A stretch of 32,000 nucleotides of DNA, taken from assembly GCF_016127575.1 (NCBI RefSeq), contig NZ_CP066019.1, positions 1,380,001-1,412,000 of the forward strand, read 5' to 3'. The notes below the pieces were generated by a model, which searched no databases, was not told where the DNA came from, and was given only the letters and a program-made list of their open reading frames with translations. A program made the translations under genes and the position numbers. Each line of letters begins with the position of its first letter. Position 1 is the stretch's first letter. Below, piece after piece: positions 5,137 through 21,003 of the stretch. This DNA is from Cupriavidus necator (GTDB lineage: Bacteria > Pseudomonadota > Gammaproteobacteria > Burkholderiales > Burkholderiaceae).

Positions 5137-5172
5137 CCGGCGGACATACACCGCCCGCTTCTGGACCGAATC

Positions 5173-6552: not shown

Positions 6553-6587
6553 TCTGAGCGTGGCGACCTGGGTTGGCGGATCCCCGG

Positions 6588-7820: not shown

Positions 7821-7929
7821 CGGCGGTTTCTCGGTTAAGGCTTCATCGGCCAGTTATGCCTCCCAAATTCGGCCTTACCATATGCGGAATTCCTGTGGCT
7901 CCGCAAAAGGCGTGGCCGAGCAGTCGGCT

Positions 7930-8142: not shown

Positions 8143-8167
8143 GTCCCAATGATTTTTGACGTCGACA

Positions 8168-8803: not shown

Positions 8804-9130
8804 CAGATGACAACCCGGGGCGGGGCGAAGGCGGGGGGGATGCTCGCTTCGCGATCAGATCGCGCACAGGACAACCGATCTTGGGCTAACGACGCTAGAG
8901 CCAACGCCAGGACGGATCGGGATTGGCACCTGCACTTTACTCAACTTTCTCAGGATTCTCAAGTTTCTCGCAGGGACCTTGCGCCGGTCGATCTGCCGCA
9001 TCGTCATGGTAATGGCTCCTGCTGGCATGACGGGCTCCCGCGCGCTGGAAGCCGTCAAGCTTACGCCTGCCAAACTCGGACATTTGAACTTAGCCAGAAC
9101 CGGACATTACCGCTTAGCCGCTACATTCTA

Positions 9131-9158
9131 TGCGCGCATAATAAGTGTTATGTCAAAT
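9131..9158 (+). other. dif-like XerC/XerD recombination site (left junction of the element)
   Basis: The site is TGCGCGCATAA-TAAGTG-TTATGTCAAAT, compared with E. coli dif GGTGCGCATAA-TGTATA-TTATGTTAAAT. The XerC arm matches 9/11 and the XerD arm 10/11. It is intergenic. Confidence 0.7.
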
Positions 9159-9241
9159 CCCATCCGTAGCTCTGCAACCCAATACTGGCGCGGCTCTCCG
9201 GGCACCTAAGCACCGATTTCCAAGCGCGTCGACAATTTATC

Positions 9242-9274
9242 CCCCACGTGTCACCCGGCACCGTGGGGTTTTTT
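9242..9274 (+). terminator. rho-independent terminator-like hairpin
   Basis: CCCCACG(tg tcacccggca c)CGTGGGG is followed by TTTTTT (9269-9274). It lies just upstream of the ATG at 9290. Confidence 0.5.
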
Positions 9275-9289
9275 CGTCATGGGTCACAA

Positions 9290-9634
9290 ATGCCACAACA
9301 ACAATACGCAATCCCCTCCGAATTCGCCCATTGGGCGCGCAGCATCCCTCCCGAATATCTCGCCCGCTATCTGCGGGTCACCCCTGCCACCGCGCGCGCC
9401 TGGCAGTCAGGCAAGCGCCCGGCGCCCTGGTGGACCGTGCACGTGCTTCGGCTCGATAAGCTTGAGCGCGACGAGATGGCCCGCCAGATGGGCTATGCCC
9501 ACCTCCTGCCGAAGCTGGGGATTGTCAGCGGCGACGTGATCCAGCTCCGGCCACGACGCGCGCAGCCGAAACCGGCGCCGGTCGGGCCGGCCAGTGTCAC
9601 GCCGCTGCCGGAACCCGGCCAGATGCAAGCCTAG
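9290..9634 (+). CDS. small phage regulatory protein, DUF3653/XafT-like candidate (114 aa)
   Basis: The internal ATG at 9290 follows the terminator. The segment YLRVTPATARAWQSGKRPAPWWTVHVLRL resembles the DUF3653 phage-protein pattern as I remember it. It lies 130 nt from the dif-like site. Confidence 0.6.
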   Translation: MPQQQYAIPSEFAHWARSIPPEYLARYLRVTPATARAWQSGKRPAPWWTVHVLRLDKLERDEMARQMGYAHLLPKLGIVSGDVIQLRPRRAQPKPAPVGPASVTPLPEPGQMQA

Positions 9635-9993
9635 TCCTTGCCGATGGACGTGTTTTTGTAGAAGTTGTTGGGCAGGCCGGTGAATGACTCCATCGAATAC
9701 TTATCACCATCTGCCGGCCTGTCCTGACTCACGTAGCATCCCGTGAACATCTGCACGCACGGCTGGCCCGATATGTCGCGCTTTTCCTCTGCCTGCTGCG
9801 ATTGCCCCATGGTCATGGACAGCGCCATGTGAGCCGCTGTCCCAGCGCCGGAAACCATATCGCCGTACGGGTTCTTCTTCAGCATTTCCGCGGTGCCCCG
9901 CGCCACCTGTTGCATCTGGTCCTCGGTGCCGACATAGCGAAGCCCACAGCCCGCCAGCGCCAGCATCATCACTCCCGTCAACATCGTTCGCAT
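9631..9993 (-). CDS. lipoprotein, 120 aa (prophage cargo candidate)
   Basis: Lipobox MRTMLTGVMMLALAGC. SD GGGAGGGG is upstream. It lies downstream of the late-operon terminator, so it is a separate transcription unit. Confidence 0.75.
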   Translation of the reverse strand: MRTMLTGVMMLALAGCGLRYVGTEDQMQQVARGTAEMLKKNPYGDMVSGAGTAAHMALSMTMGQSQQAEEKRDISGQPCVQMFTGCYVSQDRPADGDKYSMESFTGLPNNFYKNTSIGKD

Positions 9994-10025
9994 AACCCCT
10001 CCCGTTGTTTTCCGGCAGTGTAACG

Positions 10026-10050
10026 AAAAAAACCCGGCCTAAAGCCGGGC
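10026..10050 (-). terminator. rho-independent terminator ending the long minus-strand operon
   Basis: On the minus strand it reads GCCCGGC-TTTAG-GCCGGG followed by TTTTTTT. Confidence 0.8.
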
Positions 10051-10076
10051 AATCCCCTGTGCAGCGCGATACCTGG

Positions 10077-10148
10077 TTAGCGCTTCTTGCGCTTCCGGAA
10101 CTGGCCGTTGGCCTTGCGCGGCGGCGTACGTCGTTTCTTGGTTGCCAT
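10077..10148 (-). CDS. 23-aa polybasic peptide MATKKRRTPPRKANGQFRKRKKR
   Basis: Found by hand because it is below the ORF-track cutoff. A strong SD (AGGAG) lies 5 nt upstream of the ATG. It is the last ORF before the terminator. Confidence 0.45.
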   Translation of the reverse strand: MATKKRRTPPRKANGQFRKRKKR

Positions 10149-10162
10149 GCTCTCTCCTGTTG

Positions 10163-10339
10163 TCACCACAAAACGCGGCCCTGCTGGTCCTTCAGCGTGA
10201 CCGTCCCTTGATCAGCGATCCACGTCTTGAGCCCCGGAAAGCGCGACAGGATGACGGCGGCGCAGATGACGCCGCCGATCACAATCAGCGTTTCCCGGCC
10301 GATCTCAGCCGGCGTGGGTATCCAGCCGCGGCCGCTCAT
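10163..10339 (-). CDS. 58-aa single-TM protein (holin-like candidate)
   Basis: Hand-translated as MSGRGWIPTPAEIGRETLIVIGGVICAAVILSRFPGLKTWIADQGTVTLKDQQGRVLW. It has an ATGA overlap with the upstream ORF. GC3 is high. Confidence 0.5.
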   Translation of the reverse strand: MSGRGWIPTPAEIGRETLIVIGGVICAAVILSRFPGLKTWIADQGTVTLKDQQGRVLW

Positions 10340-10494
10340 CGGTGCCCCTCGATGTGACGGTCGATGCGTTCATGCGCCCTCCCGATGTCCTTGCGCATGT
10401 TGCGCAGATCGGCACGGATGCCACCGTAGGCGGCCCCGGCCCCCATCAGCACCGTGACCAGGTACTTGAGCGCATCGACCGTCAGCGCGTCCAT
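10336..10494 (-). CDS. 52-aa small protein (N-terminal hydrophobic segment, charged C-terminus)
   Basis: Hand-translated as MDALTVDALKYLVTVLMGAGAAYGGIRADLRNMRKDIGRAHERIDRHIEGHR. There is a TAATG junction with the upstream ORF. Confidence 0.5.
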   Translation of the reverse strand: MDALTVDALKYLVTVLMGAGAAYGGIRADLRNMRKDIGRAHERIDRHIEGHR

Positions 10495-10661
10495 TACTCG
10501 GCCTGGCCCTTTTCCGGCAGGAACACTGCCAGCGCCGACAGCACGGCGGCGACCACCGCGGACACGGCATTGACCTTGGTCGGATTGGCGCCGACGATCA
10601 CCGCCAGACCGGACAGGCCGGCCATGGTGGACGGCTCGCGCAAACGTTGCAGAAATTTCAT
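10494..10661 (-). CDS. 55-aa small membrane protein
   Basis: The internal ATG at 10661 forms an ATGA overlap with the upstream stop. The sequence MKFLQRLREPSTMAGLSGLAVIVGANPTKVNAVSAVVAAVLSALAVF is hydrophobic. Confidence 0.6.
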   Translation of the reverse strand: MKFLQRLREPSTMAGLSGLAVIVGANPTKVNAVSAVVAAVLSALAVFLPEKGQAE

Positions 10662-11077
10662 TGTGCTTTCCTCACTCGCGGGTACACAAAGGCCGCACCG
10701 CCCGCGTTCTCGGTGACAGTCCACGCATTGGCAGGCCGCGCGGCAAACGTGCCGGCGTAGCCGTCCATCGAATAATCCGGCGTGCGGTCGCTGCCCACCA
10801 GCGAACTGATGAACGTGCCAGCCGGGCAGGCAAACGACGCATCCCAGGTGCGGCCCTCGGCAAGCGCGCGTTCGCACTCGGTCATGTCCGTGCGGGGCAC
10901 GCCCAGCACGTCACCGATACCCAGCACCGCCCCGCTGGCCGCATCCCCCACCGCCCCCACCAGGGCGCTCGCTGCACCCGCAGCCACACCCTGAATCCCG
11001 CCGTTTTTTTTTACGACATAGGCGATCGCCGCGATGGCGGCGCCGGCGAGCAACAGCTTGGCGGTCGTGTCTTTCAT
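10658..11077 (-). CDS. 139-aa N-terminally anchored membrane protein (virion membrane protein candidate)
   Basis: The ATG at 11077 is adjacent to the upstream stop (11079-11081). TM segment MKDTTAKLLLAGAAIAAIAYVV. A Gly/Ala-rich linker follows. Confidence 0.65.
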   Translation of the reverse strand: MKDTTAKLLLAGAAIAAIAYVVKKNGGIQGVAAGAASALVGAVGDAASGAVLGIGDVLGVPRTDMTECERALAEGRTWDASFACPAGTFISSLVGSDRTPDYSMDGYAGTFAARPANAWTVTENAGGAAFVYPRVRKAQ

Positions 11078-11078
11078 G

Positions 11079-11537
11079 TCAGCCGCCCGTGGCCCAGCCC
11101 AGGTAGTTGCCCAGGCTCGGGCTCTCCACCTGCGAGCCGAACGTGTAGGCACCGTTCATGCTGCCAAACTGGCCCGGCGTCCAGCCATCCGTGGCGTCAA
11201 TGCCGAGCTGGCCGATGTAGCCGTTCTGCGCGTTGTATTCCAGCGCGTTGGACAGCCCGCCGCCGAACACGCCCGTGACCGGCGCGCCGCTGATCACGGC
11301 ATCCGGCGAGCCCGAACGGAACGCGCCGATGATGCTCGACACCAGCCCCGCGCCTGCGGAGGCGTAGGCAATATTCCGCTGCGCGCTGTAGTCAGGCCGC
11401 AGCTGCGCCGCGGTGCCCATCGGCACGCCTGTGGCCGCCGTCGCGGCGCGCGATCGCAGCGCGAGGAACGCCATCGCGCCCACCGCTGCAATCAGAAGCA
11501 AATCCGGGCCTCCGCCCCCTGCCGCTGCCTTAGCCAT
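11079..11537 (-). CDS. 152-aa membrane protein (virion membrane protein candidate)
   Basis: N-terminal TM segment PDLLLIAAVGAMAFLAL. The protein is Gly/Ala/Ser-rich. It overlaps the upstream gene by 8 nt. Confidence 0.65.
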   Translation of the reverse strand: MAKAAAGGGGPDLLLIAAVGAMAFLALRSRAATAATGVPMGTAAQLRPDYSAQRNIAYASAGAGLVSSIIGAFRSGSPDAVISGAPVTGVFGGGLSNALEYNAQNGYIGQLGIDATDGWTPGQFGSMNGAYTFGSQVESPSLGNYLGWATGG

Positions 11538-12165
11538 TCACTACACCCCCTGCCGCTTGATATGCGGCCTGCAATCGTTCCAGCGCCACTTCCGGCTGGC
11601 CGTACCCGGCGCCGGGCATGGACGCCCAAATCTTGCGCACCTTGCGCACCGCCAGCGCGAAGCGGCCCGCGTCCACGTCACCCAGGGCGCCCGCTTCGCG
11701 GATCAGTTCCAGCGCCGCCGCGTCCTGGCTGGCCGGCGAGAAGTCCGTCAGGCCCAGCCGGGCGGCCAGCGTGTCCCACGTGCGGCGCAGGAACTGGTAG
11801 GCGCCTGCCGCGCTGCTGCTGATCGGCTTGCCGTTCGACAGGGCGGTCACCACCTGGCGCGGATGATCCGCGAAGGAATCGAACTTCCCGCCGCCGAACA
11901 GCATGCGGTATCCGTCATTGCCTGCGGTGCCCTCCCCGGTGCGAATCGTCAGCAGGAAGGCGGCGCGATTCAGTTGTGCTTGCCCCATGTCGGTGTCCTC
12001 AGTGCCGCCGAAGAAGTTGCCTTCGGTGGCGTCGTAAAACAGGTTTTCGGCCTGGTCGATGAAGTCCGGCGACTGCGCGCCCGGCTCTTCGCTGCGCTGC
12101 CAGTCGCGCCACACCACGTAGCCCACGGCGGCCAAGGCCAGCAGCGCGAACTCGTAGCGCGTCAT
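11530..12165 (-). CDS. membrane-anchored lytic transglycosylase, phage lambda R / GH104 type, 211 aa
   Basis: AAGAYQFLRRTWD...LGLTDFSPASQDAAALELIREAGAL...IWASMPGAGYGQPE parallels lambda R (AAGRYQLL..WWD...LGLKDFSPKSQDAVALQQIKERGAL...IWASLPGAGYGQ). There is an extra N-terminal TM segment (FALLALAAVGYVVW). Confidence 0.88.
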   Translation of the reverse strand: MTRYEFALLALAAVGYVVWRDWQRSEEPGAQSPDFIDQAENLFYDATEGNFFGGTEDTDMGQAQLNRAAFLLTIRTGEGTAGNDGYRMLFGGGKFDSFADHPRQVVTALSNGKPISSSAAGAYQFLRRTWDTLAARLGLTDFSPASQDAAALELIREAGALGDVDAGRFALAVRKVRKIWASMPGAGYGQPEVALERLQAAYQAAGGVVNG

Positions 12166-12935
12166 CAGATCGCTTCCTCGAAGAACTCCGCCGTGACTGT
12201 CAGATTGGTGTTATTTGCCGTGCCAAACCACATTACGCCCTGCCCTGGCTCCAGCGTAATTGGCTCCTGAAACACCTTCTGCGCGATCACGTTCGCGGCC
12301 AGATTGGACGTAAATATCGAATTGAGACCCCCCTCCCCGCTTGGGCTTGTAGTCGTGTCTTCGCGGCCCTGCGCGACACTCGCCGCGCCCCACTTCTTTG
12401 GCACAATGCACGCCGCGTTCGCGCTTCCAATCGCGCTGTTCTTCCACGTCATGCCAAAGGCTTGTGCGGTCTGGCTCGATACGTCTGCCGTCTTCACTAC
12501 CAGCCGCTTGCCGCTGCCGACTGGGTTCCACAGTTGCGGCGTCGGCCTGTGCGTCGCGTCACCGATAGTATTGAAGGACGCCAGAAACGCGGCGCCGCCC
12601 AGCGTGCGGGCCTTGCCGCCGTCGATCACATCGACGGTGCCGGCAATGCGCTGGTCGAAGAAGTCCCCCGATCCAATCATCAGGTATCCGGTCAGCGCTA
12701 CGCTTCCCCGGTTGAACACTACCCAGCGCGTTACCTGCTCGCTGAATCGGAAGCCCTGCCCCGGCTTCAGGCTGATATTGCCCTGCGCGAAGTTGGGCCG
12801 AATCTCGATCTGCGCGAACGGGTCTGCCGCCGACAGGAACTGCACGCGGTCCCCGGCCACGTCGATGGCCTGGGCACCACCCGCAGGGATGTTCAGGTCG
12901 TACTGCTGTACGGATTCAATGATGCCCACGGTCAC
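12165..12935 (-). CDS. putative vertex/spike (receptor-binding) protein, 256 aa
   Basis: It is a soluble, beta-rich protein placed between membrane-protein genes and the lysozyme. It has a GTG start in a GTGA overlap (the alternative GTG at 12929 has better SD spacing). The functional call rests on position and composition only. Confidence 0.4.
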   Translation of the reverse strand: MTVGIIESVQQYDLNIPAGGAQAIDVAGDRVQFLSAADPFAQIEIRPNFAQGNISLKPGQGFRFSEQVTRWVVFNRGSVALTGYLMIGSGDFFDQRIAGTVDVIDGGKARTLGGAAFLASFNTIGDATHRPTPQLWNPVGSGKRLVVKTADVSSQTAQAFGMTWKNSAIGSANAACIVPKKWGAASVAQGREDTTTSPSGEGGLNSIFTSNLAANVIAQKVFQEPITLEPGQGVMWFGTANNTNLTVTAEFFEEAI

Positions 12936-13459
12936 CCCTTCATTTTCGATACGGCCACGATGCCCGCGATCGCGAGCGCGCCGGCCACAAGGAATTTCTG
13001 ACCGGTGCCAATCTCCTGCACGTTGTCATAGGCTTTCGCCACGTTCTGTGTGGCCGTTTCGTTCACCGCCCTGGCGGTGCTGGCCGTGTCCTTGGCGAAA
13101 TCGATCAGCTTGCCCATGCCGGCCAGCAGGCCGTCAGCGTTGATCCTGGACTGATCCAGATTCAGCTTGAGGCCGTCTCGCGCCATCCCTACCGCGTCGG
13201 CAGTGGACTTGTAGGTGGTTTCGCTGTTCGTCTTGGCGAAATCGAACGCCGCCGCAATGGAGCCGGCATCGGTGTAGCTGAGGTTGGCCGATACCTGGTT
13301 TCCGTCGCCCGACACCGAGATGCCGCCATCGTTGACGGTGCGGCGATCCACGTTGTTCGTGGTTGCCGCCGTGCTGCTGGCGTTGCTGCTGGACCGGTTG
13401 CAAGGCGTGGCCGGCAGGCCCAGCGCCAGCTGCTTAACTTGCCACGGCTTGAGAATCAT
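12932..13459 (-). CDS. 175-aa protein with C-terminal TM anchor (virion membrane protein candidate)
   Basis: SD GGGGA upstream of the ATG at 13459. The C-terminus is FLVAGALAIAGIVAVSKMKG. Confidence 0.65.
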   Translation of the reverse strand: MILKPWQVKQLALGLPATPCNRSSSNASSTAATTNNVDRRTVNDGGISVSGDGNQVSANLSYTDAGSIAAAFDFAKTNSETTYKSTADAVGMARDGLKLNLDQSRINADGLLAGMGKLIDFAKDTASTARAVNETATQNVAKAYDNVQEIGTGQKFLVAGALAIAGIVAVSKMKG

Positions 13460-13865
13460 GGTTTCCCCGCTTGCGCAGCGTCACGGCCTCTACGCCGTAG
13501 CCGATGCGCTTCAGTTTCTTGATGAGGCCGGGCCGGCACGTCTCGATGCGGATCGCATCGAACGCCGCGCACTGCCGCTCGATCAGCGGCAGCACCCCGG
13601 CCACAATGTCAAAGTCCGCGCCGCCATAGGCCAGCGCAATCTCGGCCTCGGTGCCGTGCGCGTACTGGTGTCCGCGCAGCACATACCAGGCCACCGGCTC
13701 GCCGTCCCGATAGACCCGGCAGAAGGTGCCGCCCGCCACGCACTCAGCCGGCGCCATCAGGCCCCGGCTGGTGTCGCTCTTGGCGTGCGCGCCGAACGCG
13801 CTGTCAACCTCGGCCAGCAGTGCCGGCGTCCAGGCTTCCGGTTCGATCCTGATGACGGTTTCCAT
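13434..13865 (-). CDS. 143-aa soluble protein, possible GNAT-like fold
   Basis: GC3 is high. The junction with the upstream gene is a TGATG overlap. The segment AEIALAYGGADFDIVAGVLPLIERQC...IRIETCRPGLIKKLKRIGY is arranged like the GNAT beta4-alpha3...alpha4 region. The fold call is weak. Confidence 0.6.
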   Translation of the reverse strand: METVIRIEPEAWTPALLAEVDSAFGAHAKSDTSRGLMAPAECVAGGTFCRVYRDGEPVAWYVLRGHQYAHGTEAEIALAYGGADFDIVAGVLPLIERQCAAFDAIRIETCRPGLIKKLKRIGYGVEAVTLRKRGNHDSQAVAS

Positions 13866-14191
13866 CAGCCGCGCCGTGCGAAGGCGATGGCGACCGCCGC
13901 AGCAGCCAGCAGCACCATTGGGTTATTTAACAGCGACAGCGCGTTATCCGCCGTCGCCTGCACAGCGCTGGTCAGCGTCGGCAAGGCGCGCGCCTCACTG
14001 CCTCCGGTGGCTACCGTCCAGCCTGAGCCGTCGAAATGCTGGTCAAACATGCCCCCGCCCGACACTGCCGCCTTATTGCCATCCGGGCCACCCAGCGTAC
14101 TGGTCAGCACCTGCGACGCGCCCATGATGGCGGCGGTGTACGGGTTCGAGTACATGGCGGCAGATGCCGCCCCGCCCATGGCCGGAGTCAT
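13865..14191 (-). CDS. 108-aa protein with C-terminal TM anchor
   Basis: There are 1-nt start/stop overlaps on both sides. The C-terminus is MVLLAAAAVAIAFARRG. Confidence 0.65.
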   Translation of the reverse strand: MTPAMGGAASAAMYSNPYTAAIMGASQVLTSTLGGPDGNKAAVSGGGMFDQHFDGSGWTVATGGSEARALPTLTSAVQATADNALSLLNNPMVLLAAAAVAIAFARRG

Positions 14192-14511
14192 CAGGGCTTC
14201 CCGGCCAGCAGGTAGATGACGGCGCCCGCCACCAGCAGCGGCATCAGGCCACCACCGAACAGCGCAGCCGCCGGCGTGGAGCCGCGCGGCGCCGTGGTCA
14301 GCACCGCACCGCCCGGCGTGATGACCGCCGCCGTGTTGGTGTTCTGCAGCGCCCGCACGGTCTGCACGTCGATCAGACGCGACAGCCCGTACTTGAGCAG
14401 GTCCGCCCCGCTCTGCGCCAGCGGGTTCAGGTCGCTGGCGTCAGGCGCCGCACTCACCATCGGATCGGTGTAGTACGACTGGGGCTGAATGCTGTCGGTC
14501 CAATCACCCAT
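14191..14511 (-). CDS. 106-aa protein with C-terminal TM anchor
   Basis: SD GGGGG upstream. The C-terminus is LMPLLVAGAVIYLLAGKP. Confidence 0.65.
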   Translation of the reverse strand: MGDWTDSIQPQSYYTDPMVSAAPDASDLNPLAQSGADLLKYGLSRLIDVQTVRALQNTNTAAVITPGGAVLTTAPRGSTPAAALFGGGLMPLLVAGAVIYLLAGKP

Positions 14512-14520
14512 GACGCCCCC

Positions 14521-15345
14521 TTACAGGTTGAACGGCAGGTCGATGCACTCGACGTAGACGTCGATGCCGTCCGCAGCGGTCAGGAACGCATTGAACTCCA
14601 GCGCCGCCGCATCGGCGGTCTTGAGGGCGCCCGACTGATTGTTGTCGAAAATGAAGTCCACGCAGTAGTGCTTGGGCTGCGGCACCTTGCGCTGTTCCTG
14701 CTCGATGAAGCGCGCCACGCGGCTGGTCGCGTCCCATACCACCAGGCCGTTTTTCTTGACCTCGACGCGGTTCAGGTTGCCGTCCGTGGTCGACGTCCAG
14801 TCCGTGCCGGTGTAGATCATGTGGATACGCTTCAGGAGCGCACCCTTGGCCGAGAAGTTGATGGGGAACTTGCCCGCCACGCTGGTGGAGGCCGGGAAAT
14901 ACAGCAGCTTGTGGATCAGCTCGCCCGCGCCCTGGCCTTGCGGCGGCGTGAGGAACATGTAGCCGGTCAGCGTCGGCGCGGTGGCGCCCGCGATGGTGAT
15001 TTCCAGATTCATGTTATCCGGCCACGCGGTCAGGTCGAAGCCGCCCACTTCCTTGCCGTCGATGCTCGGCGCGTCGCGCTCGGTAAAGTCGATGGTCAGG
15101 AAGTTGGCATCGTCGTAGATGCCCTTGTACTTGTTGATCAGGTCCAGCGCGGAGCCCTTCACGTTGTACACCGTGCGGGCGCCGATCTTGACCTTGATGT
15201 CGGTGATCATCGCCTTCGTGAGCGCGGTGCCGCCCAGGGCGAGCACAATGCGGGTCAGCGTGTTGGAGTAGCGCGGGATCTGCAGCGTGGCGACGCCGCT
15301 GTTGACCACGTTCAGGAACGGGGGCAGTTGTTGGAGGATTGCCAT
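14521..15345 (-). CDS. major capsid protein candidate, PM2 P2-like (small double jelly-roll), 274 aa
   Basis: The size is close to PM2 P2 (269 aa). Both halves match my recollection of P2. The N-terminus FLNVVNSGVATLQIPRYSNTLTRIVLALGGT...ITDIKVKIGARTVY...LTIDF resembles FLNLNSIPNVAAGNSCSIKLPIGQTYEVIDLRYSGVT...VRVELDGRLL. The C-terminal half VEVKKNG...YCVDFIF...DVYVECIDLP resembles VEFQIDG...YTIDFML...EIIVEYMG. It sits between the ATPase and membrane-protein genes. Confidence 0.6.
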   Translation of the reverse strand: MAILQQLPPFLNVVNSGVATLQIPRYSNTLTRIVLALGGTALTKAMITDIKVKIGARTVYNVKGSALDLINKYKGIYDDANFLTIDFTERDAPSIDGKEVGGFDLTAWPDNMNLEITIAGATAPTLTGYMFLTPPQGQGAGELIHKLLYFPASTSVAGKFPINFSAKGALLKRIHMIYTGTDWTSTTDGNLNRVEVKKNGLVVWDATSRVARFIEQEQRKVPQPKHYCVDFIFDNNQSGALKTADAAALEFNAFLTAADGIDVYVECIDLPFNL

Positions 15346-15360
15346 TTCTCGGTGTCCTTT

Positions 15361-15474
15361 TCAGCCGGCCAGTGCGGTGGCGACGATTTGGTTTGCCACC
15401 GGCACGCGGCGGGCGACGTAGATCACGGCCAGCACCAGCGCCGTGGTCTTGATTGCGTTCTTGATCTCGCTCAT
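15361..15474 (-). CDS. 37-aa single-TM protein
   Basis: The internal ATG at 15474 lies 4 nt after the upstream stop. Sequence: MSEIKNAIKTTALVLAVIYVARRVPVANQIVATALAG. Confidence 0.5.
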   Translation of the reverse strand: MSEIKNAIKTTALVLAVIYVARRVPVANQIVATALAG

Positions 15475-15478
15475 GGCG

Positions 15479-15589
15479 TTAGCCCAGCAGCTTGGCGACG
15501 GAATCGGGCAGGAACTTCTTGCCCTGATTGATGATGACCAGCGCAATGGCGGTCATCGCCACGGCCTTGCCAATGTCCTTCACGCTCAT
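15479..15589 (-). CDS. 36-aa single-TM protein
   Basis: Hand-translated as MSVKDIGKAVAMTAIALVIINQGKKFLPDSVAKLLG. SD GGGAGA upstream. It is below the ORF-track cutoff. Confidence 0.55.
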   Translation of the reverse strand: MSVKDIGKAVAMTAIALVIINQGKKFLPDSVAKLLG

Positions 15590-15688
15590 GGTTTTCTCCC
15601 CGAAAGTGCGTGTCTGCAATGTCGGGGCTAGCCCCCGCTTGAGCCTTCACTATGGGCAACCCAAGCGGGGCAGCGCAAGGGGCGCCCG

Positions 15689-16402
15689 TTACGTTACGTT
15701 GGGCGCGGGTTCGGCCAACGTACGTACGTTACGTACGGGTTTTGGGGTGTTGCTCCCCAGCGACGGCAGCACGCCGGAGACGGTTTTCCCGGTCTGCATG
15801 TCGCGCTCGATGAAGTCAAAGCGGCCCGCGTCCTTGTCGGCCACCATGGCCCGCACCTGGTCCTGCGAGACCGCCAGATACCGACTCATGGTGCGGACGT
15901 CGTTCTCGTCGTTCAGGCGGCTGCAATGGATCATCGTGCAGTTGCCCAGGAACGTCTTGTCGATCAGCGCCGGGCGCTGCGTGACCCCGAAAATGGTCAG
16001 CGCCTCATGCCGGCCCTGGCGCGACAGCACCGACCACGAATCCGGCGTCTCGGCCGGGCTCGGTCCGGTCACGTCCGCCAGCTCTTCCACCACCAGGCAC
16101 AGGTTCCCCGCGGCGAACACCAGCTCGCACAGCGTGTCGAACTTGTCCGGGTAGGTCTTCTTGCGCTTGCCGGGCCGGTAGACGATCCGGAAAGGCCCAT
16201 CGCTGCCAGCCGTGACCACGGCCTCGACCACCTCGCGCAGGTCGGTCATGACCTCGCCCTGGTCGTATTCGCCCAGCGGATCCCAGATCAGCAGGCGCGG
16301 CGGGTTGCCCCGATCCAGTACGCTCTTGAGCCATCGGCTCTTGCCGCTTCCCGACGCCCCTACGACGCCAATGATTCGTGCGGTGTTATGGCTTCCCGCC
16401 AT
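15689..16402 (-). CDS. P-loop ATPase, FtsK/HerA-type genome-packaging ATPase candidate (PM2 P9 / PRD1 P9 class), 237 aa
   Basis: Walker A is IGVVGASGSGKS and Walker B is LCLVVEELADV. It is small, has no terminase nuclease domain, and lies immediately upstream of the capsid module. Confidence 0.7.
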   Translation of the reverse strand: MAGSHNTARIIGVVGASGSGKSRWLKSVLDRGNPPRLLIWDPLGEYDQGEVMTDLREVVEAVVTAGSDGPFRIVYRPGKRKKTYPDKFDTLCELVFAAGNLCLVVEELADVTGPSPAETPDSWSVLSRQGRHEALTIFGVTQRPALIDKTFLGNCTMIHCSRLNDENDVRTMSRYLAVSQDQVRAMVADKDAGRFDFIERDMQTGKTVSGVLPSLGSNTPKPVRNVRTLAEPAPNVT

Positions 16403-16403
16403 G

Positions 16404-16886
16404 TCATCCCCTTACGGCAGGCAAGCGCCCGCCCGTGTCTTCCATGTTCTCGCCCAGGTGCGACCGCGACTGCGGCGGCACCACCTCAGCGGGCGGCGCG
16501 TTGTCCACCGTACGTTCGGCGTCCTGCTGTTCGCGCCATGCCTGGTGCGCCACGTACGTGGACAGCGCCAGCGGCCCCGCCACCAGCAGCAGGCCGATTT
16601 CCGGCCCGGACATGAGCCCGCCCACGTTGAGGCCGTACTTGTCGGCCACCGGCACGATGGCGGCGGCCAGCGCCTTGATGGTGTCCTTCGTGTAGATGCT
16701 GGGCAGGTACGGCAAGGCCGGCGACAGCACCGTGACCAGCAGCGTGAGGGACATTTCCCACTCGACGGCGGGATCAACCGGCTCCGGCTCGCCCGGCAGC
16801 AGCGGCAGGCCCTCGGGCTCGACCGATTCCGCCGCGTGCGCCTTGCGCCGGAGCATGTCCATGGTATTGGCGTCGATCACCCCCAT
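16404..16886 (-). CDS. 160-aa membrane protein
   Basis: Two hydrophobic segments (LTLLVTVLSPALPYL and GPEIGLLLVAGPLALSTYVA). It overlaps the upstream gene by 10 nt. Confidence 0.65.
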   Translation of the reverse strand: MGVIDANTMDMLRRKAHAAESVEPEGLPLLPGEPEPVDPAVEWEMSLTLLVTVLSPALPYLPSIYTKDTIKALAAAIVPVADKYGLNVGGLMSGPEIGLLLVAGPLALSTYVAHQAWREQQDAERTVDNAPPAEVVPPQSRSHLGENMEDTGGRLPAVRG

Positions 16887-17134
16887 ACGGATAGCTCCCC
16901 TTGTTCCAGGGCGCCCGGCCCCGGCGTGGCGGGCATGGTTTCCGTAACGTTACGTACGTACGGGACGCCATCGCCCAGGATGAAGCGTTCGCGGATGCGT
17001 TCGTCGGCCTCGTCAGAGCGCGCGAAGAGCTGGATCCCGCAACCGGGCGCGGTGCAGTTGATGCACACCCGCCCGTTTTTCATGGGAGACCAGCGCGCGC
17101 CCTGGCCGCACACCGGGCAGGTGCATTGGGTCAT
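16877..17134 (-). CDS. zinc-ribbon protein, 85 aa (candidate transcription factor)
   Basis: The Cys pattern is CTCPVCG...(14 aa)...CINCTAPGCG. It is compact, and its position precedes the structural genes. Confidence 0.65.
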   Translation of the reverse strand: MTQCTCPVCGQGARWSPMKNGRVCINCTAPGCGIQLFARSDEADERIRERFILGDGVPYVRNVTETMPATPGPGALEQGELSVWG

Positions 17135-17137
17135 GGC

Positions 17138-17416
17138 TTAGGCCCCCTGCCCTGCCAGCAGCGCGGCGTTGAGGATGCCGGCAACCATGTCGGCGGCGGT
17201 GGTGTTGGCCGGCATGTTGGCCAACGCGGTTACGCCAGCGGCCTGCATGGCCTCGGTGGGCGCGGTCGGCGGCGAGAGCTGGGCGTCAGCCATGCCCAGG
17301 ACCATTTCGGCCTGGTGGTGGGCGGCGCCGTACGCCGTATCGCCAGTGTCGCGCACATGGGGCTTGAGGCTCTCCACGGCGGCCAGCAGCGCCTGCATTT
17401 CGGTCAGGATGGTCAT
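17138..17416 (-). CDS. hypothetical phage protein, 92 aa
   Basis: GC3 is high, and it has tight junctions with its neighbours. Confidence 0.6.
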   Translation of the reverse strand: MTILTEMQALLAAVESLKPHVRDTGDTAYGAAHHQAEMVLGMADAQLSPPTAPTEAMQAAGVTALANMPANTTAADMVAGILNAALLAGQGA

Positions 17417-17547
17417 TGCTTTTGCTCCCTCAGTTCATCCAGCGCCACGGCCATGTCCCGCAGCAGTTCCTTGACGGGGCGCGGCAGCACGCTCCCGAAA
17501 ACCAGCAGCGCCGCATCGGCGCGATCCTTGAAAGACCTCTCTTCCAC
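17413..17547 (-). CDS. hypothetical 44-aa protein (GTG start)
   Basis: Hand-translated as (M)EERSFKDRADAALLVFGSVLPRPVKELLRDMAVALDELREQKQ. SD GAGGGG lies 7 nt upstream. It has an ATGA overlap with the next gene. Confidence 0.4.
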   Translation of the reverse strand: MEERSFKDRADAALLVFGSVLPRPVKELLRDMAVALDELREQKQ

Positions 17548-17616
17548 TTCGTTTCCCCTCTACGTTGGCGCCTTTCGGCGCGAAATCCGTTTCCGTTACG
17601 CGTAACGAAAACCCAT

Positions 17617-18087
17617 TCAGTCCTTGTGCATCGGGAACGGCCACTCGCTCTCCGCATATCGCGACGCCGGCGACCCCAATTCCGTTACGGGTTTCGTCGT
17701 AACGGAATTGGCGAGCCCGCTGCGCGCGGCTTCGAGCTCGCCACGCAGTGATGCAATCACGGTGCCGGAGTCGATGGCGTTCTGCCGCCAGCGGCGCAGC
17801 GCGATCAGCTCGTCGTTGAGCTCGTCGATGGTTTCGTGCGCTTCGGCCAGCTCGGCCCGCACGGCGGCCAGCTCTTCCGCGAGCTCGTCCGCGTCGCCCT
17901 GGTGCATCAGGTCGGGCACGCCCGGCGCGGCGTACGTGGAAATGCCGTCCGCCTTGAGGCGCGCGCGGTATTTGGCCTGGCGCTCGGCATTGGTCATCGC
18001 GCCGGGCTTGCGCGGTCGCCCAGGCCGGCGCTTCGTTTCGACCTCGGGCAACAGCTCGCCCGTCACGTTGTCGGCGGCATCACGCAT
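17617..18087 (-). CDS. coiled-coil protein with a basic AT-hook-like segment, 156 aa
   Basis: The internal ATG at 18087 overlaps the initiator stop by 8 nt. It has the segment KRRPGRPRKPG followed by heptad-like AEELAAVRAELAEAHETIDELNDELIALRR. Confidence 0.6.
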   Translation of the reverse strand: MRDAADNVTGELLPEVETKRRPGRPRKPGAMTNAERQAKYRARLKADGISTYAAPGVPDLMHQGDADELAEELAAVRAELAEAHETIDELNDELIALRRWRQNAIDSGTVIASLRGELEAARSGLANSVTTKPVTELGSPASRYAESEWPFPMHKD

Positions 18088-19150
18088 GGCGTACCCCTTT
18101 CTGCGCTCTTGGCTTGACCAGGTCAGCGAGCCGGCCGGGCGGCTTGCCCGCGCGGCCCGCCGCGACCTCGGCGGCAAAGGCCGCTTCCCGCGCCGCGGCT
18201 TCGGCGGCGGCAGCCCTTGCGCCCTCGCGCTGGGCCCGGATGCGCTCGGCGTGTTCGGGCAGCCAGTCATCGCCCTGCGCCTTGTCGACCAGGCTGGCGA
18301 GGAACTTGAACGGGGAACGGATGCCTCCGGCCTCGATAGCGCCCCGCCATTCGTCTAAAACCGCTTGGGATAGGTCAGGGCCTATGGGCGACAGTTTTTT
18401 TGCAATGTCGGCCCTTCTGGCCTGCGCGATGCCGATCGGCCAGTGCAACCGATCCTCCCAGGCGAGGCCGCCCCCCTCTTTTGCAAGCCGGCGCGCAGCG
18501 CCCTCCCCCACCGCATCGGCCGGCCCGTGGCGTTCCTCTGAGGGCGCGAAGCCTTCGGGTTCGTGTGGGTGTTGGGGGTCCAGCTCGCCCTCCCGCGCCG
18601 AAGGCGTGGGGGGCTGTTGATACTCCCCCCGGCGGCGAAGCCGTTGGGGGGTAGGGGGGGAAGGGTTTAAGGTGTTACCGGTATCCGGATGTGTGTCGGC
18701 TTTCGCGTTTTCGGGTCTGTCGGCTTCTCTGTCGGCTTCTTCCCTGAAACCCGCGCCGTTATTGCCTTCTGAGGTGTCGGCTTGTCTGTCGGATTGACCT
18801 GTCGGCTTACTGTCGGCTTTTTTTCGGACGTTTTTATCCGTGTCGGCGAGCGGACAGAAAAAAACGAGCTGCTTGTCACGCGACCCGATGCGCACCAGGC
18901 CGTGTTTAACGAGCTGCAGCGCCATGCGGCGGATCGCCTCGATGCTGGGGATGGTGGCCTTCACGCCCGGCCTGGGCTCGATGTAGAGCCATTCCTTGAG
19001 CGCCTGCCAGGAGATACGCGGGGCCAGTCCTACGGCCCCGGTGCGGAAGTCCATGCGCGGACGAATCGCCATCACGTACATGCAGATGGCGGCGTAGTCC
19101 ATGCCGGACAGGGCCGACAATTCGGCCTCATTGAGTTTGAGCGCGGGCAT
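18080..19150 (-). CDS. replication initiator candidate (lambda O-like organisation: N-terminal winged-helix, repeat-encoded linker, C-terminal domain), 356 aa
   Basis: The N-terminal roughly 100 aa look wHTH-like (ISWQALKEWL...IRRMALQLVKHGLVRI). The central low-complexity part is encoded by an iteron array. There is no HUH/RCR motif. Confidence 0.55.
   Translation of the reverse strand: MPALKLNEAELSALSGMDYAAICMYVMAIRPRMDFRTGAVGLAPRISWQALKEWLYIEPRPGVKATIPSIEAIRRMALQLVKHGLVRIGSRDKQLVFFCPLADTDKNVRKKADSKPTGQSDRQADTSEGNNGAGFREEADREADRPENAKADTHPDTGNTLNPSPPTPQRLRRRGEYQQPPTPSAREGELDPQHPHEPEGFAPSEERHGPADAVGEGAARRLAKEGGGLAWEDRLHWPIGIAQARRADIAKKLSPIGPDLSQAVLDEWRGAIEAGGIRSPFKFLASLVDKAQGDDWLPEHAERIRAQREGARAAAAEAAAREAAFAAEVAAGRAGKPPGRLADLVKPRAQKGVRHA
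18694..18849. repeat. iteron array: 8 copies of TGTCGG(C/A)(T/G)(T/A) followed by A/T-rich tracts; candidate ori inside the initiator gene
   Basis: Copies start at 18694, 18718, 18730, 18775, 18787, 18800, 18811 and 18841. The tracts T7 (18818-18824), TTTTTA (18831-18836) and A7 (18858-18864) are adjacent. Confidence 0.65.
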
Positions 19151-19156
19151 TGATGG

Positions 19157-19249
19157 TCACAGCACCCAATGCACAATCGCGAAGACCACCATCACCAGCA
19201 CCATCAGCGCCCAGGCGATCACACCCGCGTCTGCTTTCTCTCGCGCCAT
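19157..19249 (-). CDS. 30-aa single-TM peptide
   Basis: Hand-translated as MAREKADAGVIAWALMVLVMVVFAIVHWVL. The ATG lies 2 nt after the upstream stop. Confidence 0.35.
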   Translation of the reverse strand: MAREKADAGVIAWALMVLVMVVFAIVHWVL

Positions 19250-19250
19250 G

Positions 19251-19571
19251 TCAGCAGCCCTCCGCCTTGTTGATGGCATTGCCGACCAGCACCAGCGCCT
19301 TGCCTACCTTCGGATCATCGGCGTGGCGGGCCAGCGCGACATACGCTGCATTGAGCGCCTCCAGCAGTTCCGGCGCGGTGGCCATCAGGCGCGCATTGGC
19401 TTCTGCCTCCGTTCCAGGACTTGCGCAGTACACCACTCCCACTTCCATCAGGAAGCGGTCGCCCCGCTGGCTCTCGGGATAGATATGGCAAATCGACTCA
19501 GCGCTCTTAACGTTCTGGTGGTTCCACGTTGCGAACCACGGACCCGGCGTATGGGAATTTTGTAACGACAT
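19251..19571 (-). CDS. Ead/Ea22-like early phage protein, 106 aa
   Basis: The motif GPW...EANARLMATAPELLEAL is common in the C-termini of small early phage proteins. SD GAGGGG upstream. Confidence 0.6.
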   Translation of the reverse strand: MSLQNSHTPGPWFATWNHQNVKSAESICHIYPESQRGDRFLMEVGVVYCASPGTEAEANARLMATAPELLEALNAAYVALARHADDPKVGKALVLVGNAINKAEGC

Positions 19572-19695
19572 GTGACCACCCCTCTATCCTCACCCTGCCA
19601 TTTGGAAGATCCCCATCGGGGAAGAGGCGCCGCCTGCCAGCGGATCAGGCCGGCCCTGGCGGGTGGGATTCCAGGCGGCGGCGCGTCTGGTGTGA

Positions 19696-19724
19696 ACTGT
19701 AGTCACCCTGGGATGACACGTCAA
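19696..19724 (-). promoter_or_regulatory. leftward early promoter candidate
   Basis: On the minus strand it reads TTGACG-17 nt-TACAGT. Confidence 0.5.
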
Positions 19725-19775
19725 GCATGGATGACGTCATCCTCCATTGCGCTTGACAGTCATCTCCCGATGACT
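19711..19775. promoter_or_regulatory. three operator-like sites sharing GATGAC/GTCATC half-sites
   Basis: O1 is GGATGACacGTCA (19711-19723). O2 is the perfect 14-bp palindrome GGATGACGTCATCC (19729-19742). O3 is AGTCATCtcccGATGACT (19758-19775). O1 overlaps the leftward promoter and O3 overlaps the rightward promoter. Confidence 0.6.
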
Positions 19776-19780
19776 ATCCT
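19753..19780 (+). promoter_or_regulatory. rightward promoter candidate for the repressor gene
   Basis: It reads TTGACA-16 nt-TATCCT, about 40 nt upstream of ATG 19820. Confidence 0.55.
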
Positions 19781-19819
19781 TCGTCCCGGGTGGAGTGCTT
19801 TTTTAAAGGGGTGAAAGTG

Positions 19820-20146
19820 ATGAAAACTACTCTTGAATACGTCGACGCGGTCAAGATCAGGCTTGACCTGCCGTCTGATTATGCGATTGCCAAGTCCCTC
19901 GGCGTGTCGCGTCAGGCCGTCAGCCAGTACCGCCAGGGCAAGGCTGCTTTTGATGACCTTACCGCCGTGCGCGTGGCGGAAATCCTTGGTCTGAATCCGA
20001 TGGAAGTGATCGCCGCTGCCAACCGTGAGCGGGCGAAAAGCGAGGATGCGCGGCGCGTGTGGACCGGCCTTTTCGACCGTTTCGCCGCAAATTTTGAGAC
20101 GCTCTGCGAGCACCTCCGGATAGCCCAGACCCCGCGTCTGGCCTAG
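19820..20146 (+). CDS. CI/Cro-type HTH repressor, 108 aa
   Basis: The HTH is YAIAKSLGVSRQAVSQYRQGK. SD AAAGGGG lies upstream of ATG 19820. It is divergent from the early operon. Confidence 0.8.
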   Translation: MKTTLEYVDAVKIRLDLPSDYAIAKSLGVSRQAVSQYRQGKAAFDDLTAVRVAEILGLNPMEVIAAANRERAKSEDARRVWTGLFDRFAANFETLCEHLRIAQTPRLA

Positions 20147-20161
20147 CCCGCAGAGCTTTTT
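20101..20161 (+). terminator. nested hairpins plus T-tract at the 3' end of the repressor gene
   Basis: The inner hairpin is CCAGAC-cccgc-GTCTGG (20125-20141). The outer pairing is GCTCTGCG (20101-20108) with CGCAGAGC (20149-20156), followed by TTTTT. The geometry is non-canonical. Confidence 0.35.
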
Positions 20162-20189
20162 CCGGATGGGACTAAGTGTTATGTTAAAT
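20162..20189 (+). other. dif-like site with a degenerate XerC-side arm (right junction of the element)
   Basis: The site is CCGGATGGGAC-TAAGTG-TTATGTTAAAT. The XerD arm matches E. coli dif 11/11. The central hexamer is identical to the left site. The XerC-position arm matches only 2/11. Confidence 0.65.
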
Positions 20190-20378
20190 CAAGAAGGTTG
20201 CGCCGCTGGCTGGAGCAAGCGCTGCGTGCAGTCAGTGCTCCAACGCAAAAGTGTGCACGAATTCGTCGGATTTAGCCCCGAAAGTGACTCTGTGATTTCT
20301 TTTGAGACCTCGTGCACATCATTGCGCAATAGGTCGACGCCTCTGCATTCCGTGCATGCCTTTCTGCCTCCAACGCAC

Positions 20379-20406
20379 TTGTATAACGTGCGAGAATCCC
20401 TATAAG
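20379..20406 (+). promoter_or_regulatory. sigma70-like promoter candidate upstream of the exonuclease gene
   Basis: It reads TTGTAT-16 nt-TATAAG. Confidence 0.4.
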
Positions 20407-20445
20407 CATGATTCCTGTAGACGTCCGGTGGGCTCCGATTCGAAG

Positions 20446-20964: not shown

Positions 20965-21003
20965 AAAGTGGCCAACTCGCTATCAAGATCAAATGCTCAG
21001 TCC

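Follow-up and report, generated by a model that had tools for sequence, protein, structure and literature searches.

A PM2-like prophage at the dif site of Cupriavidus necator H16 chromosome 2, very probably integrated by the host XerC and XerD recombinases

How does a phage in which no integrase can be recognised come to lie exactly at a chromosomal dif site, and what do its two ends suggest about the control of its integration? These questions are raised by an element of about 11 kb in a 32,000-nucleotide stretch of Cupriavidus necator DNA (contig NZ_CP066019.1, positions 1,380,001 to 1,412,000; this whole stretch is called the window below). The window is part of chromosome 2 of C. necator (Ralstonia eutropha) H16, the chromate-transporter gene in its left flank being 100% identical to AM260480.1, and window position p corresponds to AM260480.1 position 1,454,564 + p. 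We consider it very probable that the element is a temperate, PM2-like, membrane-containing double-jelly-roll (DJR) phage of 11,031 bp, integrated at the dif site of H16 chromosome 2 by XerC and XerD, recombinases of its host, and that it is an integrative mobile element exploiting Xer (IMEX) of the 'dif-type DJR prophage' kind.

Insertion at the chromosome 2 dif

The boundaries of the element are as follows.

9131 to 9158, + strand: attL, with TGCGCGCATAA as XerC arm (from the host), TAAGTG as central hexamer and TTATGTCAAAT as XerD arm (from the phage)
9159 to 20161: prophage body, PM2-like (Vinavirales, corticovirus-like); the unit including one copy of the core is 11,031 bp
20162 to 20189, + strand: attR, with CCGGATGGGAC, a non-Xer sequence from the phage, where the XerC arm would be, TAAGTG as central hexamer and TTATGTTAAAT as XerD arm (from the host)

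Both ends are thus hybrid dif-like sites, in direct repeat and 11,031 bp apart. Allowing up to two mismatches, the 17-nt core TAAGTGTTATGTYAAAT occurs in the 32 kb just at attL and attR, where shuffled sequences lead one to expect 0.00 occurrences, and the XerD arm with at most one mismatch is found at the same two places; the full dif-like pattern is matched by attL alone (0.01 expected). The XerD arm matches at 10 of 11 positions, and the XerC-side sequence CCGGATGGGAC of attR agrees with the host arm at 2 of 11. A single C/T difference, at position 7 of the XerD arm, separates a phage-type C at attL (a variant that is the natural dif arm in Burkholderia mallei) from a host-type T at attR and at the empty site, and puts the crossover to the left of that position. 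A preliminary description, made from the letters of the window, had placed the two sites at these coordinates, with two good arms on the left, a degenerate XerC side on the right, one C/T difference inside the XerD arm and a circular form of about 11,031 bp, and on each of these points our results agree with it.

That description had also predicted that a strain free of the element would read TGCGCGCATAA-TAAGTG-TTATGTTAAAT at this place. The element is precisely absent from two C. necator records, KB944503.1 (L004) and CP196515.1 (L005; L-numbers, L002 to L043, are our labels for the compared sequence records), and both read ...ctatgcgcgcataaTAAGTGttatgttaaatcaagaagg..., which is the predicted sequence, a complete dif-like 28-mer whose right half is identical to that of attR. 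The flanks on both sides are those of H16, with 1 mismatch in 17.8 kb in CP196515.1 and 99.6% identity in KB944503.1. Because these strains also carry the genes just left of attL (for hypothetical proteins of 211 and 70 aa) and just right of attR (for an RNase AS-like exonuclease of 164 aa and a protein of 145 aa), the flanking genes are not part of the element. The junction sequences expected for H16 are GGATGGGACTAAGTGTTATGTCAAATCCCATCC for attP and GCGCATAATAAGTGTTATGTTAAATCAAGAAGG for attB.

The position of the insertion within the replicon is consistent with a terminus, as had likewise been proposed. attL starts at 1,463,695 of AM260480.1, which is 50.3% of the 2,912,490-bp replicon, and is identical to the 28-mer TGCGCGCATAATAAGTGTTATGTCAAAT catalogued as the chromosome 2 dif of H16 by both Carnoy & Roten (2009, PMC2731167) and Kono et al. 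(2011, PMC3025954), in whose supplementary tables its positions are given as 1,463,708 and 1,463,694. What both catalogues recorded is the phage–host hybrid attL, with C in its XerD arm, and not the ancestral site, the prophage having gone unnoticed. The cumulative skew of the chromosome switches at 1,456,377 (PMC2731167), 7,331 bp from attL, and copies of the motif GGGNAGGG, which resembles an FtsK-orienting polar sequence (KOPS), change strand at the site in the host flanks, all 3 copies to the left being on the + strand and all 3 to the right on the - strand; the terminus placement rests on the published skew point and these 6 motifs. Since the lysogen has no other complete dif-like site, attL presumably serves as its working dif. 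Inside the prophage (9159 to 20161) there are 2 copies of GGGNAGGG on the + strand and 6 on the - strand, the polarity expected to the right of attL as working dif, which may just track gene orientation, the genes of the element being mostly on the minus strand.

We then considered what could have carried out the insertion. Searches with Pfam, PHROGs and NCBIfam on called genes of at least 85 aa, and with Pfam on the ten longest antisense open reading frames (ORFs), found no recombinase, transposase, DDE or HUH signature, the basis of the search being known families, so that a wholly novel recombinase fold would escape it; the possibility that a recombinase was hidden in antisense ORFs or in the flanking genes was also followed up and yielded none. 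Because the insertion lies exactly at dif and the element has no integrase of its own, XerC and XerD of the host (for which the H16 chromosome 1 genes xerD and xerC are listed at 623850..624788 and 133805..134884; PMC2731167 Table S1) are almost certainly borrowed, a dependence that we read from the sequence. Exact insertion at dif, hybrid sites in direct repeat and no recombinase found inside or beside the element together support the earlier reading of it as an IMEX. When held against the definition of dif-type DJR prophages (PMC12715192), the element has the P2 capsid and ATPase, the P16-like terminal repressor and the dif-like attP between terminal genes, and has no P15/XafT.

Integration of this kind would proceed from a circular phage in which attP reads CCGGATGGGAC-TAAGTG-TTATGTCAAAT, with a good XerD arm, a hexamer equal to that of the chromosome 2 dif and no XerC arm, flanked, on the same strand, by the gene for the P16-like repressor and that for a 114-aa helix-turn-helix (HTH) protein. 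Recombination of attP with dif (TGCGCGCATAA-TAAGTG-TTATGTTAAAT), crossing over to the left of XerD-arm position 7, would give a complete attL and an attR without an XerC arm. XerD would bind the arm of attP and draw XerC to the non-specific side by protein–protein cooperativity. For the order of events we give about an even chance to an XerC-first, FtsK-independent exchange, finished by XerD (the hexamers being identical) or by replication, and regard an XerD-first course, with FtsK or a phage factor as activator, as possible but less probable. In a related prophage, L019, the hexamer beside the host XerC arm is TCATCA (phage-linked, and also present in L021) and that beside the host XerD arm is TGATGA, junctions that are suggestive of an XerC-side crossover and an XerC-first order. 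The missing XerC arm of attR would probably spare the prophage from excision at each activation of Xer at dif by FtsK.

Genes of the element and its relatives

The genes between the two sites were assigned as follows.

9290 to 9634, + strand: terminal gene, 114-aa HTH protein, filling the slot of PM2 P15/XafT (DUF3653)
9631 to 9993, - strand: predicted lipoprotein, 120 aa, lipobox LAGC found by eye, no family match
10163 to 11537, - strand: five small genes (58, 52, 55, 139 and 140-152 aa), hydrophobic products, no family match
11530 to 12165, - strand: endolysin (lysozyme-like), 211 aa, PHROG phrog_90, E 1.7e-46
12165 to 14511, - strand: five structural or unknown genes (254-256, 175, 143, 108 and 106 aa), no family match, syntenic in all relatives
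14521 to 15345, - strand: PM2 P2-type capsid protein, 274 aa, Pfam P2_N E 1.1e-39 and P2_C E 5.1e-42
15361 to 15589, - strand: two very small genes (37 and 36 aa) from gene calls, hydrophobic products
15689 to 16402, - strand: genome-packaging ATPase, 237 aa, Walker A GASGSGKS, phrog_2666 E 3e-28, weak AAA and HerA matches
16404 to 17547, - strand: four small genes (160, 85, 92 and 44 aa), one of which (85 aa) encodes a zinc-ribbon protein with a weak Lar_restr_allev match
17617 to 18087, - strand: AT-hook protein, 156 aa, its N-terminal 47 residues about 70% identical to RS603 ORF11 and p12J ORF8
18080 to 19150, - strand: putative replication-initiation protein, 356 aa, in the slot of the Phage_GPA rolling-circle Rep of relatives
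19251 to 19571, - strand: early gene, 106 aa, divergent from the repressor gene, Pfam match Phage_P22_Y8K6
19820 to 20146, + strand: terminal gene, HTH repressor, PM2 P16 homolog, 108 aa as annotated, HTH_3, phrog_4441 E 2.8e-29

The capsid matches, at E values of about 1e-40 for both domains, bear out the earlier suggestion of a membrane-containing, icosahedral-type phage and make it one of PM2 type. Homologs of this capsid protein number 347 at E <= 1e-40 across Burkholderiales, and the packaging ATPase gene adjoins the capsid gene. From their composition and position, the products of 10163 to 11537 are probably virion proteins of the membrane or associated with lysis. Roughly half of the proteins of the element are without a family assignment in Pfam, PHROGs or NCBIfam. 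The gene set is complete and syntenic with that of relatives, and no disrupted gene was seen. The 356-aa protein falls into PHROG families of unknown function, is about 39% identical to proteins from tailed phages of Ralstonia, Dina among them, and has a sub-threshold match to the STY4528 island replication protein.

The lysogeny genes at the two ends of the element flank attP in the circular form. The repressor, whose gene stops 16 nt ahead of attR, aligns to PM2 gp c in BLASTP at 30% identity (E 1e-14). The 114-aa protein at the other end was tried as a homolog of XafT/P15 and rejected, as it had no Pfam match at E <= 10, no BLASTP alignment to PM2 P15 and no significant BFVD match of its AlphaFold2 model, a five-helix bundle with a core pLDDT (predicted local distance difference test) of about 85 and weak matches to Xre-type HTH proteins. 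Its homologs were found in Cupriavidus only, the one further match (35%) being in p12J, a Ralstonia inovirus. In the p12J record (L035) the matches to the AT-hook and 114-aa proteins, at 4948-5442 and 6861-7115, are about 1.4 kb apart near the record end, and the HTH-like match lies on the strand opposite the annotated ORF9; no XerD-arm motif was found in p12J. The two genes that the element has in common with Ralstonia filamentous phages parallel the exchange of genes between inoviruses and DJR phages reported in Vibrio.

We traced relatives through the 114-aa and capsid proteins in Cupriavidus genomes and metagenomes. Both ends were seen in eight of them (L016-L020, L026, L027 and L041), all with the border pattern of H16, and the attL end alone in L012, L013/L014 and L015. 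The site beside the 114-aa gene consists of a good XerC arm, a hexamer and an XerD arm (a full dif-like site in L012 and L013), and at the site beside the repressor gene an unrelated sequence takes the XerC position, ahead of the same hexamer and an XerD arm; the site-to-site distance is 11.2-12.5 kb. The hexamers vary by prophage and follow the host dif, being TGTATA (the chromosome 1 type), TAAGTG, TAAAGC, TGTTTG and TGATGA. In Cupriavidus oxalaticus the prophage (L012) is found at 50.7% of a 4.0-Mb chromosome. Relatives carry a Phage_GPA rolling-circle Rep where H16 has its 356-aa protein, which together with the AT-hook protein takes the place of that Rep. An uncultured viral contig of 11,544 bp (L022), and likewise L037, has the un-integrated order of repressor, attP and 114-aa gene. 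The attP of L022 reads gtagtccCCGTAACACTC-TGCGTA-TTATGTTAAAT-GAGTGCTACGGGG, with CCGTAACACTC in the XerC position, and its 17-mer is the hexamer plus XerD arm of the published chromosome 1 dif of C. pinatubonensis JMP134. This native attP is intact, and therefore directly confirms our reconstruction of attP in a relative.

Some junctions among the relatives are odd. The two L019 sites (16093-16120 and 4827-4854) have hexamers, TCATCA and TGATGA, that are reverse complements of one another; those of L017 (17362-17389 and 4894-4921) are one base apart, CGCGTA and CACGTA, in a prophage at about 19% of the record coordinates; and the L015 site (9826-9853), with a poor XerC arm, adjoins minCDE. Secondary sites, arrays or mutations that arose later may account for them. 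Outside Cupriavidus, a Pandoraea prophage (L042, sites 4661-4688 and 15429-15456) has the opposite type of attP, with the XerC arm and hexamer repeated and the XerD side degenerate, and a Paraburkholderia prophage (L043, sites 5177-5204 and 16642-16669) has an XerC-armed attP and, beside its complete site, a DUF3653 (XafT-like) gene. The XerD-armed Cupriavidus group has the unrelated 114-aa HTH gene instead of DUF3653. PM2, which combines DUF3653 with an XerD-armed attP, breaks a simple correlation of arm type with terminal gene.

Several points weigh against this reading of the locus. We know of no experimentally studied precedent for a fully degenerate XerC arm, here with 2 of 11 matches, and because of this the order of strand exchange proposed above is a guess. 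Profile, BLASTP and structure-model searches found no XafT/DUF3653 homolog in the H16 element, and the XerC arm at attL is poor in two relatives, L015 and L017. IMG/VR does not contain the exact H16 attP junction; a non-exhaustive search of the 24 longest assemblies for each terminal gene met with integrated contexts only and gave no circular junction; and the phage databases gave no DNA or capsid-protein BLAST match, with no cultured phage record matching the element. The counts of KOPS-like motifs are tiny (6 in the host flanks), and a GC-skew switch was not seen within the 32-kb window. Lastly, the text of Kono et al. names H16 chromosome II among the predictions that differ from Carnoy & Roten (PMC3025954), despite which the supplementary tables of PMC3025954 and PMC2731167 agree on the same 28-mer.

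Part of this evidence would also suit a different history, in which Xer integration took place in the past and what is left is a fixed, defective remnant unable to excise, replicate or form particles. The failure to find a circular form or a matching phage isolate speaks for such a remnant, as do the replacement of the relatives' Phage_GPA Rep by poorly characterised proteins in H16 and the occupation of the P15/XafT slot by an unrelated protein. However, the gene set is complete, syntenic and free of visible disruption, the att sites and the arms of the hairpin described below are intact, and close relatives exist as un-integrated viral contigs. Present-day mobility of the H16 element is unproven, but a strain with a one-base flank difference in 17.8 kb that cleanly lacks the element argues for a very recent gain or loss, and we therefore think a remnant unlikely. 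Much more improbable, in our view, is that an unrecognised recombinase encoded by the element itself, for example the 356-aa protein, targets dif with Xer uninvolved. The share of proteins without a family leaves room for one, and some tailless Vibrio prophages at dif do carry integrases (PMC11630473). Against this stand the lack of any tyrosine or serine recombinase, DDE or HUH signature in the called genes or long antisense ORFs, the fact that the 356-aa slot is the replication module in relatives, and the identity between attP and its target, which is limited to an XerD arm and a hexamer tracking the host dif across ten prophages and is the signature of Xer specificity.

A hairpin around the attP core

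Another way to view attP is as part of an inverted repeat. Three structures, two of them halves of one hairpin, are found next to the att sites.

20150 to 20171, + strand: 5' arm of the attP hairpin, with outer helix GCAGAGCT, bulge TTTTC and inner helix CGGATGGGA; it covers the XerC-arm position
9158 to 9175, + strand: 3' arm of the attP hairpin, TCCCATCCG, an unpaired T and AGCTCTGC; it starts at the last base of the XerD arm
9242 to 9274, + strand: terminator-like hairpin located between attP and the 114-aa gene, CCCCACG...CGTGGGG with TTTTTT after it; its z-score is only -1.7

In the prophage the two arms of the attP hairpin are 11 kb apart. In the reconstructed H16 attP, which folds with z = -5.3, the stem starts 4 nt past the repressor stop codon and closes a loop of 17 nt made up of C, TAAGTG and TTATGTCAAA. 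All 10 Cupriavidus attP sites and the 1 Pandoraea attP fold into such a hairpin (DNA z -2.7 to -6.0), with a loop of 14-19 nt in 10/10 and 1/1 of them and the one-armed core in that loop. The outer helix is conserved in sequence across attP sites. The inner helices differ wholly between phages and yet are complementary within each, as in the pairs CGGAGAGG/CCTCTCCG, CGGATCAACG/CGTTGGTCCG, GTCCCACAGGGTCGA/TCGACTCTGTGGGAC, CCCCGTAACACTC/GAGTGCTACGGGG and CGCAGCGACG/CGTTGCTGCG. An alignment-based fold (RNAalifold, with 9 attP sites aligned by MAFFT) missed the hairpin, as the stem registers differ, and we used per-sequence folds and a comparison of own with cross-paired arms instead. Own pairs had a mean of -12.6 kcal/mol and cross pairs of -6.2, and 0 of 20,000 permutations reached the own-pair mean (9 attP sites). 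Most of the non-Watson–Crick pairs are G-T on the + strand, on which both terminal genes lie, and RNA folds of the + strand are more stable overall than those of the - strand (-286.6 against -251.7 kcal/mol). With Rfam, no family reached its gathering score in the window, and sub-threshold terminator-like matches lay near the native attP of L022.

The terminator-like hairpin at 9242 to 9274 was uncalled by a consensus scanner, as its loop exceeds 8 nt. A G+C-rich stem with a T-run is present at the same place in 11 relatives (L012, L013, L015-L020, L022, L026 and L027), about 90-125 nt further on than the attP stem. It is on the strand of the 114-aa gene, whose start codon follows about 15-25 nt downstream; this gene is either read by read-through or antitermination only, or has a promoter that overlaps the terminator. 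Integration splits attP, and therefore parts the repressor gene from half of its hairpin, from its terminator and from the next gene.

Outside the Cupriavidus group the picture is less uniform. The Pandoraea attP (L042) has a perfect 13-bp inverted repeat around its core (z = -4.2), and no hairpin was found at the Paraburkholderia attP (L043). A PM2-type inverted repeat as a general feature was considered and set aside, the repeat being weak in PM2 (z = -2.5) and in Cr39582, not kept in GXT1010 and absent from L043. Where there is a stem, it takes the position of the missing Xer arm, that of XerC in Cupriavidus and that of XerD in L042.

The function of the hairpin can be approached through what varies in it. 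The inner arms of the hairpin vary, whereas the 114-aa HTH protein has an invariant recognition helix, which argues that the inner arms are selected for base pairing and not for recognition by a protein. On these patterns of sequence, the hairpin most likely acts in the transcript of the repressor operon and ties its expression to the state of integration. More tentatively, the hairpin may sense that state, either through transcript stability or processing or through state-dependent access of Xer to attP, and with its non-XafT HTH partner would then represent an undescribed control of Xer exploitation at an attP without an XerC arm; this we offer as a possibility. A model for the first of these routes is the sib retroregulation of phage lambda, in which an RNA hairpin lies by attP and its linkage to the upstream gene changes on integration. 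As in lambda, the same gene in H16 would receive different 3' structures in the episomal and integrated states, a likeness that we treat as a lead only, and whereas lambda moves an intact hairpin away from int, the H16 hairpin is itself cut by the crossover.

Alternatively, the inverted repeat could act as DNA, as a cruciform or single-stranded hairpin that replaces the missing arm or gates XerD, or through its outer half-sites (GCAG...CTGC) as binding sites for a phage protein that would link attL with attR in excision. The placement of the stem, always where an arm is missing, fits this idea, as does the conserved sequence of the outer helix; relatives encode a rolling-circle Rep, so that single-stranded DNA exists, and PM2-type genomes are supercoiled circles. 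However, Xer needs duplex arms, and the one arm retained would be single-stranded in the hairpin. The inner helix changes fully while the recognition helix of the 114-aa protein is invariant, the wobble pairs are mostly G-T on the transcribed + strand, whose RNA folds are the more stable overall, and the hairpin is absent from L043 and not kept in the PM2 relative GXT1010. We therefore regard a role as DNA as rather unlikely. A substrate of the CTX type can be set aside, because the arms must be duplex for Xer and because CTX uses a second, inverted dif-like site, which H16 does not have: a folded single-stranded attP was looked for and rejected, as no inverted copy of the XerD or XerC arm lies within about 750 nt on each side and the capsid is a double-jelly-roll. 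A transcript that reports on integration thus remains our preferred reading of the hairpin.

Comparison with other phages at dif

The element has been seen before, without its site. Krupovic & Bamford 2007 (PMC1950889) listed a 'Ralstonia eutropha H16 corticoviral element', with an endolysin, an AT-hook protein common to Ralstonia filamentous phages and no integrase, raised CTX and XerCD as a general possibility only, and did not analyse dif. In the literature that we searched, no paper links a Cupriavidus PM2-like prophage to dif. In Vibrio, by comparison, exploitation of Xer was proposed for vibriophage NO16 ('Asemoviridae') in 2023 (PMC9966536), discussed for tailless prophages in a 2024 survey that left the matter inconclusive (PMC11630473), and followed by a catalogue of 160 'dif-type DJR' prophages in December 2025 (PMC12715192). 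The last study describes attP sites that are full-length, left-armed or right-armed, a 17-bp attP of PM2 that consists of the XerD arm and central region and lies between p16 and p15, excision of Cr39582 shown by experiment, and a lysogeny module of RstR/P16, XafT/P15 and attP common to DJR and filamentous phages. We confirmed the arrangement of attP in PM2, where order and orientation match those of H16. For PM2-like phages a degenerate XerC side is thus the published norm, and the statement in the preliminary description that one-armed use of Xer by a membrane-containing phage would be unusual was overstated.

Compared with the Vibrio dif-type DJR and NO16 prophages, the H16 element is alike in most respects: they too are tailless, about 10-12 kb long and without an integrase, lie at a chromosomal dif between dif-like attL and attR sites, keep attP between a P16/RstR-like repressor and a second small regulator gene that become the prophage termini, include one-armed 17-bp attP variants, and have lysogeny genes in common with local filamentous phages. 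It differs from them in its host, a betaproteobacterium, and in its place on a secondary chromosome, in a second terminal gene that is not DUF3653/XafT, and in its replication module. Additionally, its attP core lies in a covarying hairpin, and PMC11630473 and PMC12715192 make no mention of a hairpin or stem-loop. With PM2 and Cr39582 (Corticoviridae) it has in common the P2-type capsid, the P16 repressor and the order of repressor, non-Xer sequence, hexamer, XerD arm and next gene. However, its capsid is too diverged from that of PM2 for tblastn, and it has neither the P15 (DUF3653) nor the rolling-circle Rep P12 of PM2.

The filamentous systems offer more distant parallels. TLC-phi of Vibrio cholerae (PMC9226527) also has a double-stranded, one-armed attP with a central region equal to that of its target, and leaves one complete and one crippled site. 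In contrast to H16, which is without an XerC arm, has no XafT homolog and is not a filamentous satellite, TLC is without an XerD arm, depends on XafT and is XerD-first; L042 and L043 are of the TLC-like arm type. We rejected a TLC-type IMEX for H16, where the XerD arm matches at 10 of 11 positions, the XerC arm is the degenerate one and no DUF3653 protein is encoded. CTX-phi and VGJ-phi likewise use the host XerCD at dif and have no integrase, and the L019 junctions fit a CTX-like XerC-side crossover; however, their virions are of a different type, and the H16 attP is without the two arms that VGJ has. A VGJ-type IMEX was also rejected, given the 2 of 11 matches of CCGGATGGGAC.

Other elements and variants were noted around these dif sites. 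In C. necator CP196451 the chromosome 2 dif (L003 6976-7003, minus strand) has the hexamer TAATCG in place of TAAGTG, with identical arms. Because attP has to match the hexamer, variation of this sort could render a strain immune to the phage. The same record has an ISNCY-family insertion sequence (IS) with a 507-aa transposase (NF033594, E 3e-154; L003 6985-8682), whose end TTCTATTTGGCCCTGAC lies exactly 6 nt outside the XerC arm of dif and which is accompanied by an 8-bp duplication, ACTCTATG. A full copy sits at the same dif-edge place in Cupriavidus sp. H39 (L041 16121-17789), end-like remnants occur at the same distance to the left of attL in L012, L016, L017 and L026, and H16 has the related TTAGCCGCTAC at this distance from its XerC arm (window about 9108-9130); it looks as if this IS targets the outer edge of dif. 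In L002 a further element, at about 2180-8680, has the junctions ...CTATG|TGCGCATtcttgg and ccaaca|GCGCGCATAA-TAAGTG-TTATGTTAAAT, and its gene trio also adjoins the PM2-like prophage of Pandoraea sp. XJJ-1 (L042 1-4563). This second element, which bears an integrase, may home to dif too. The G+C content of the window falls to 0.53-0.58 over 19500-22000, from the right end of the prophage into a host segment that holds the RNase AS-like DEDD exonuclease gene (164 aa, 20470-20964) and the 145-aa gene (21004-21441). The segment is present in all strains, including those with an empty site, and may be older foreign DNA at the terminus.

The H16 element is, then, a further dif-targeting DJR prophage, with a variant lysogeny module and in a new host group, of a kind already published between 2023 and 2025. 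What may be new to the kind is an attP core held in the loop of a conserved, covarying hairpin that integration splits, and a non-homologous HTH protein in the XafT/P15 slot. The element joins three lines of work, namely the H16 corticoviral prophage of 2007, the predicted chromosome 2 dif of 2009 and 2011 and the dif-targeting DJR phages of Vibrio of 2023-2025, and in doing so identifies the H16 chromosome 2 'dif' of two catalogues as a phage–host hybrid. C. necator H16 is a tractable industrial model with a natural, near-isogenic empty-site strain, and is a convenient place to study how XerCD would recombine an attP without an XerC arm and without XafT, the covarying hairpin being a concrete element open to mutational testing. 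For the family as a whole, PM2-like exploitation of Xer reaches the Betaproteobacteria and secondary chromosomes.

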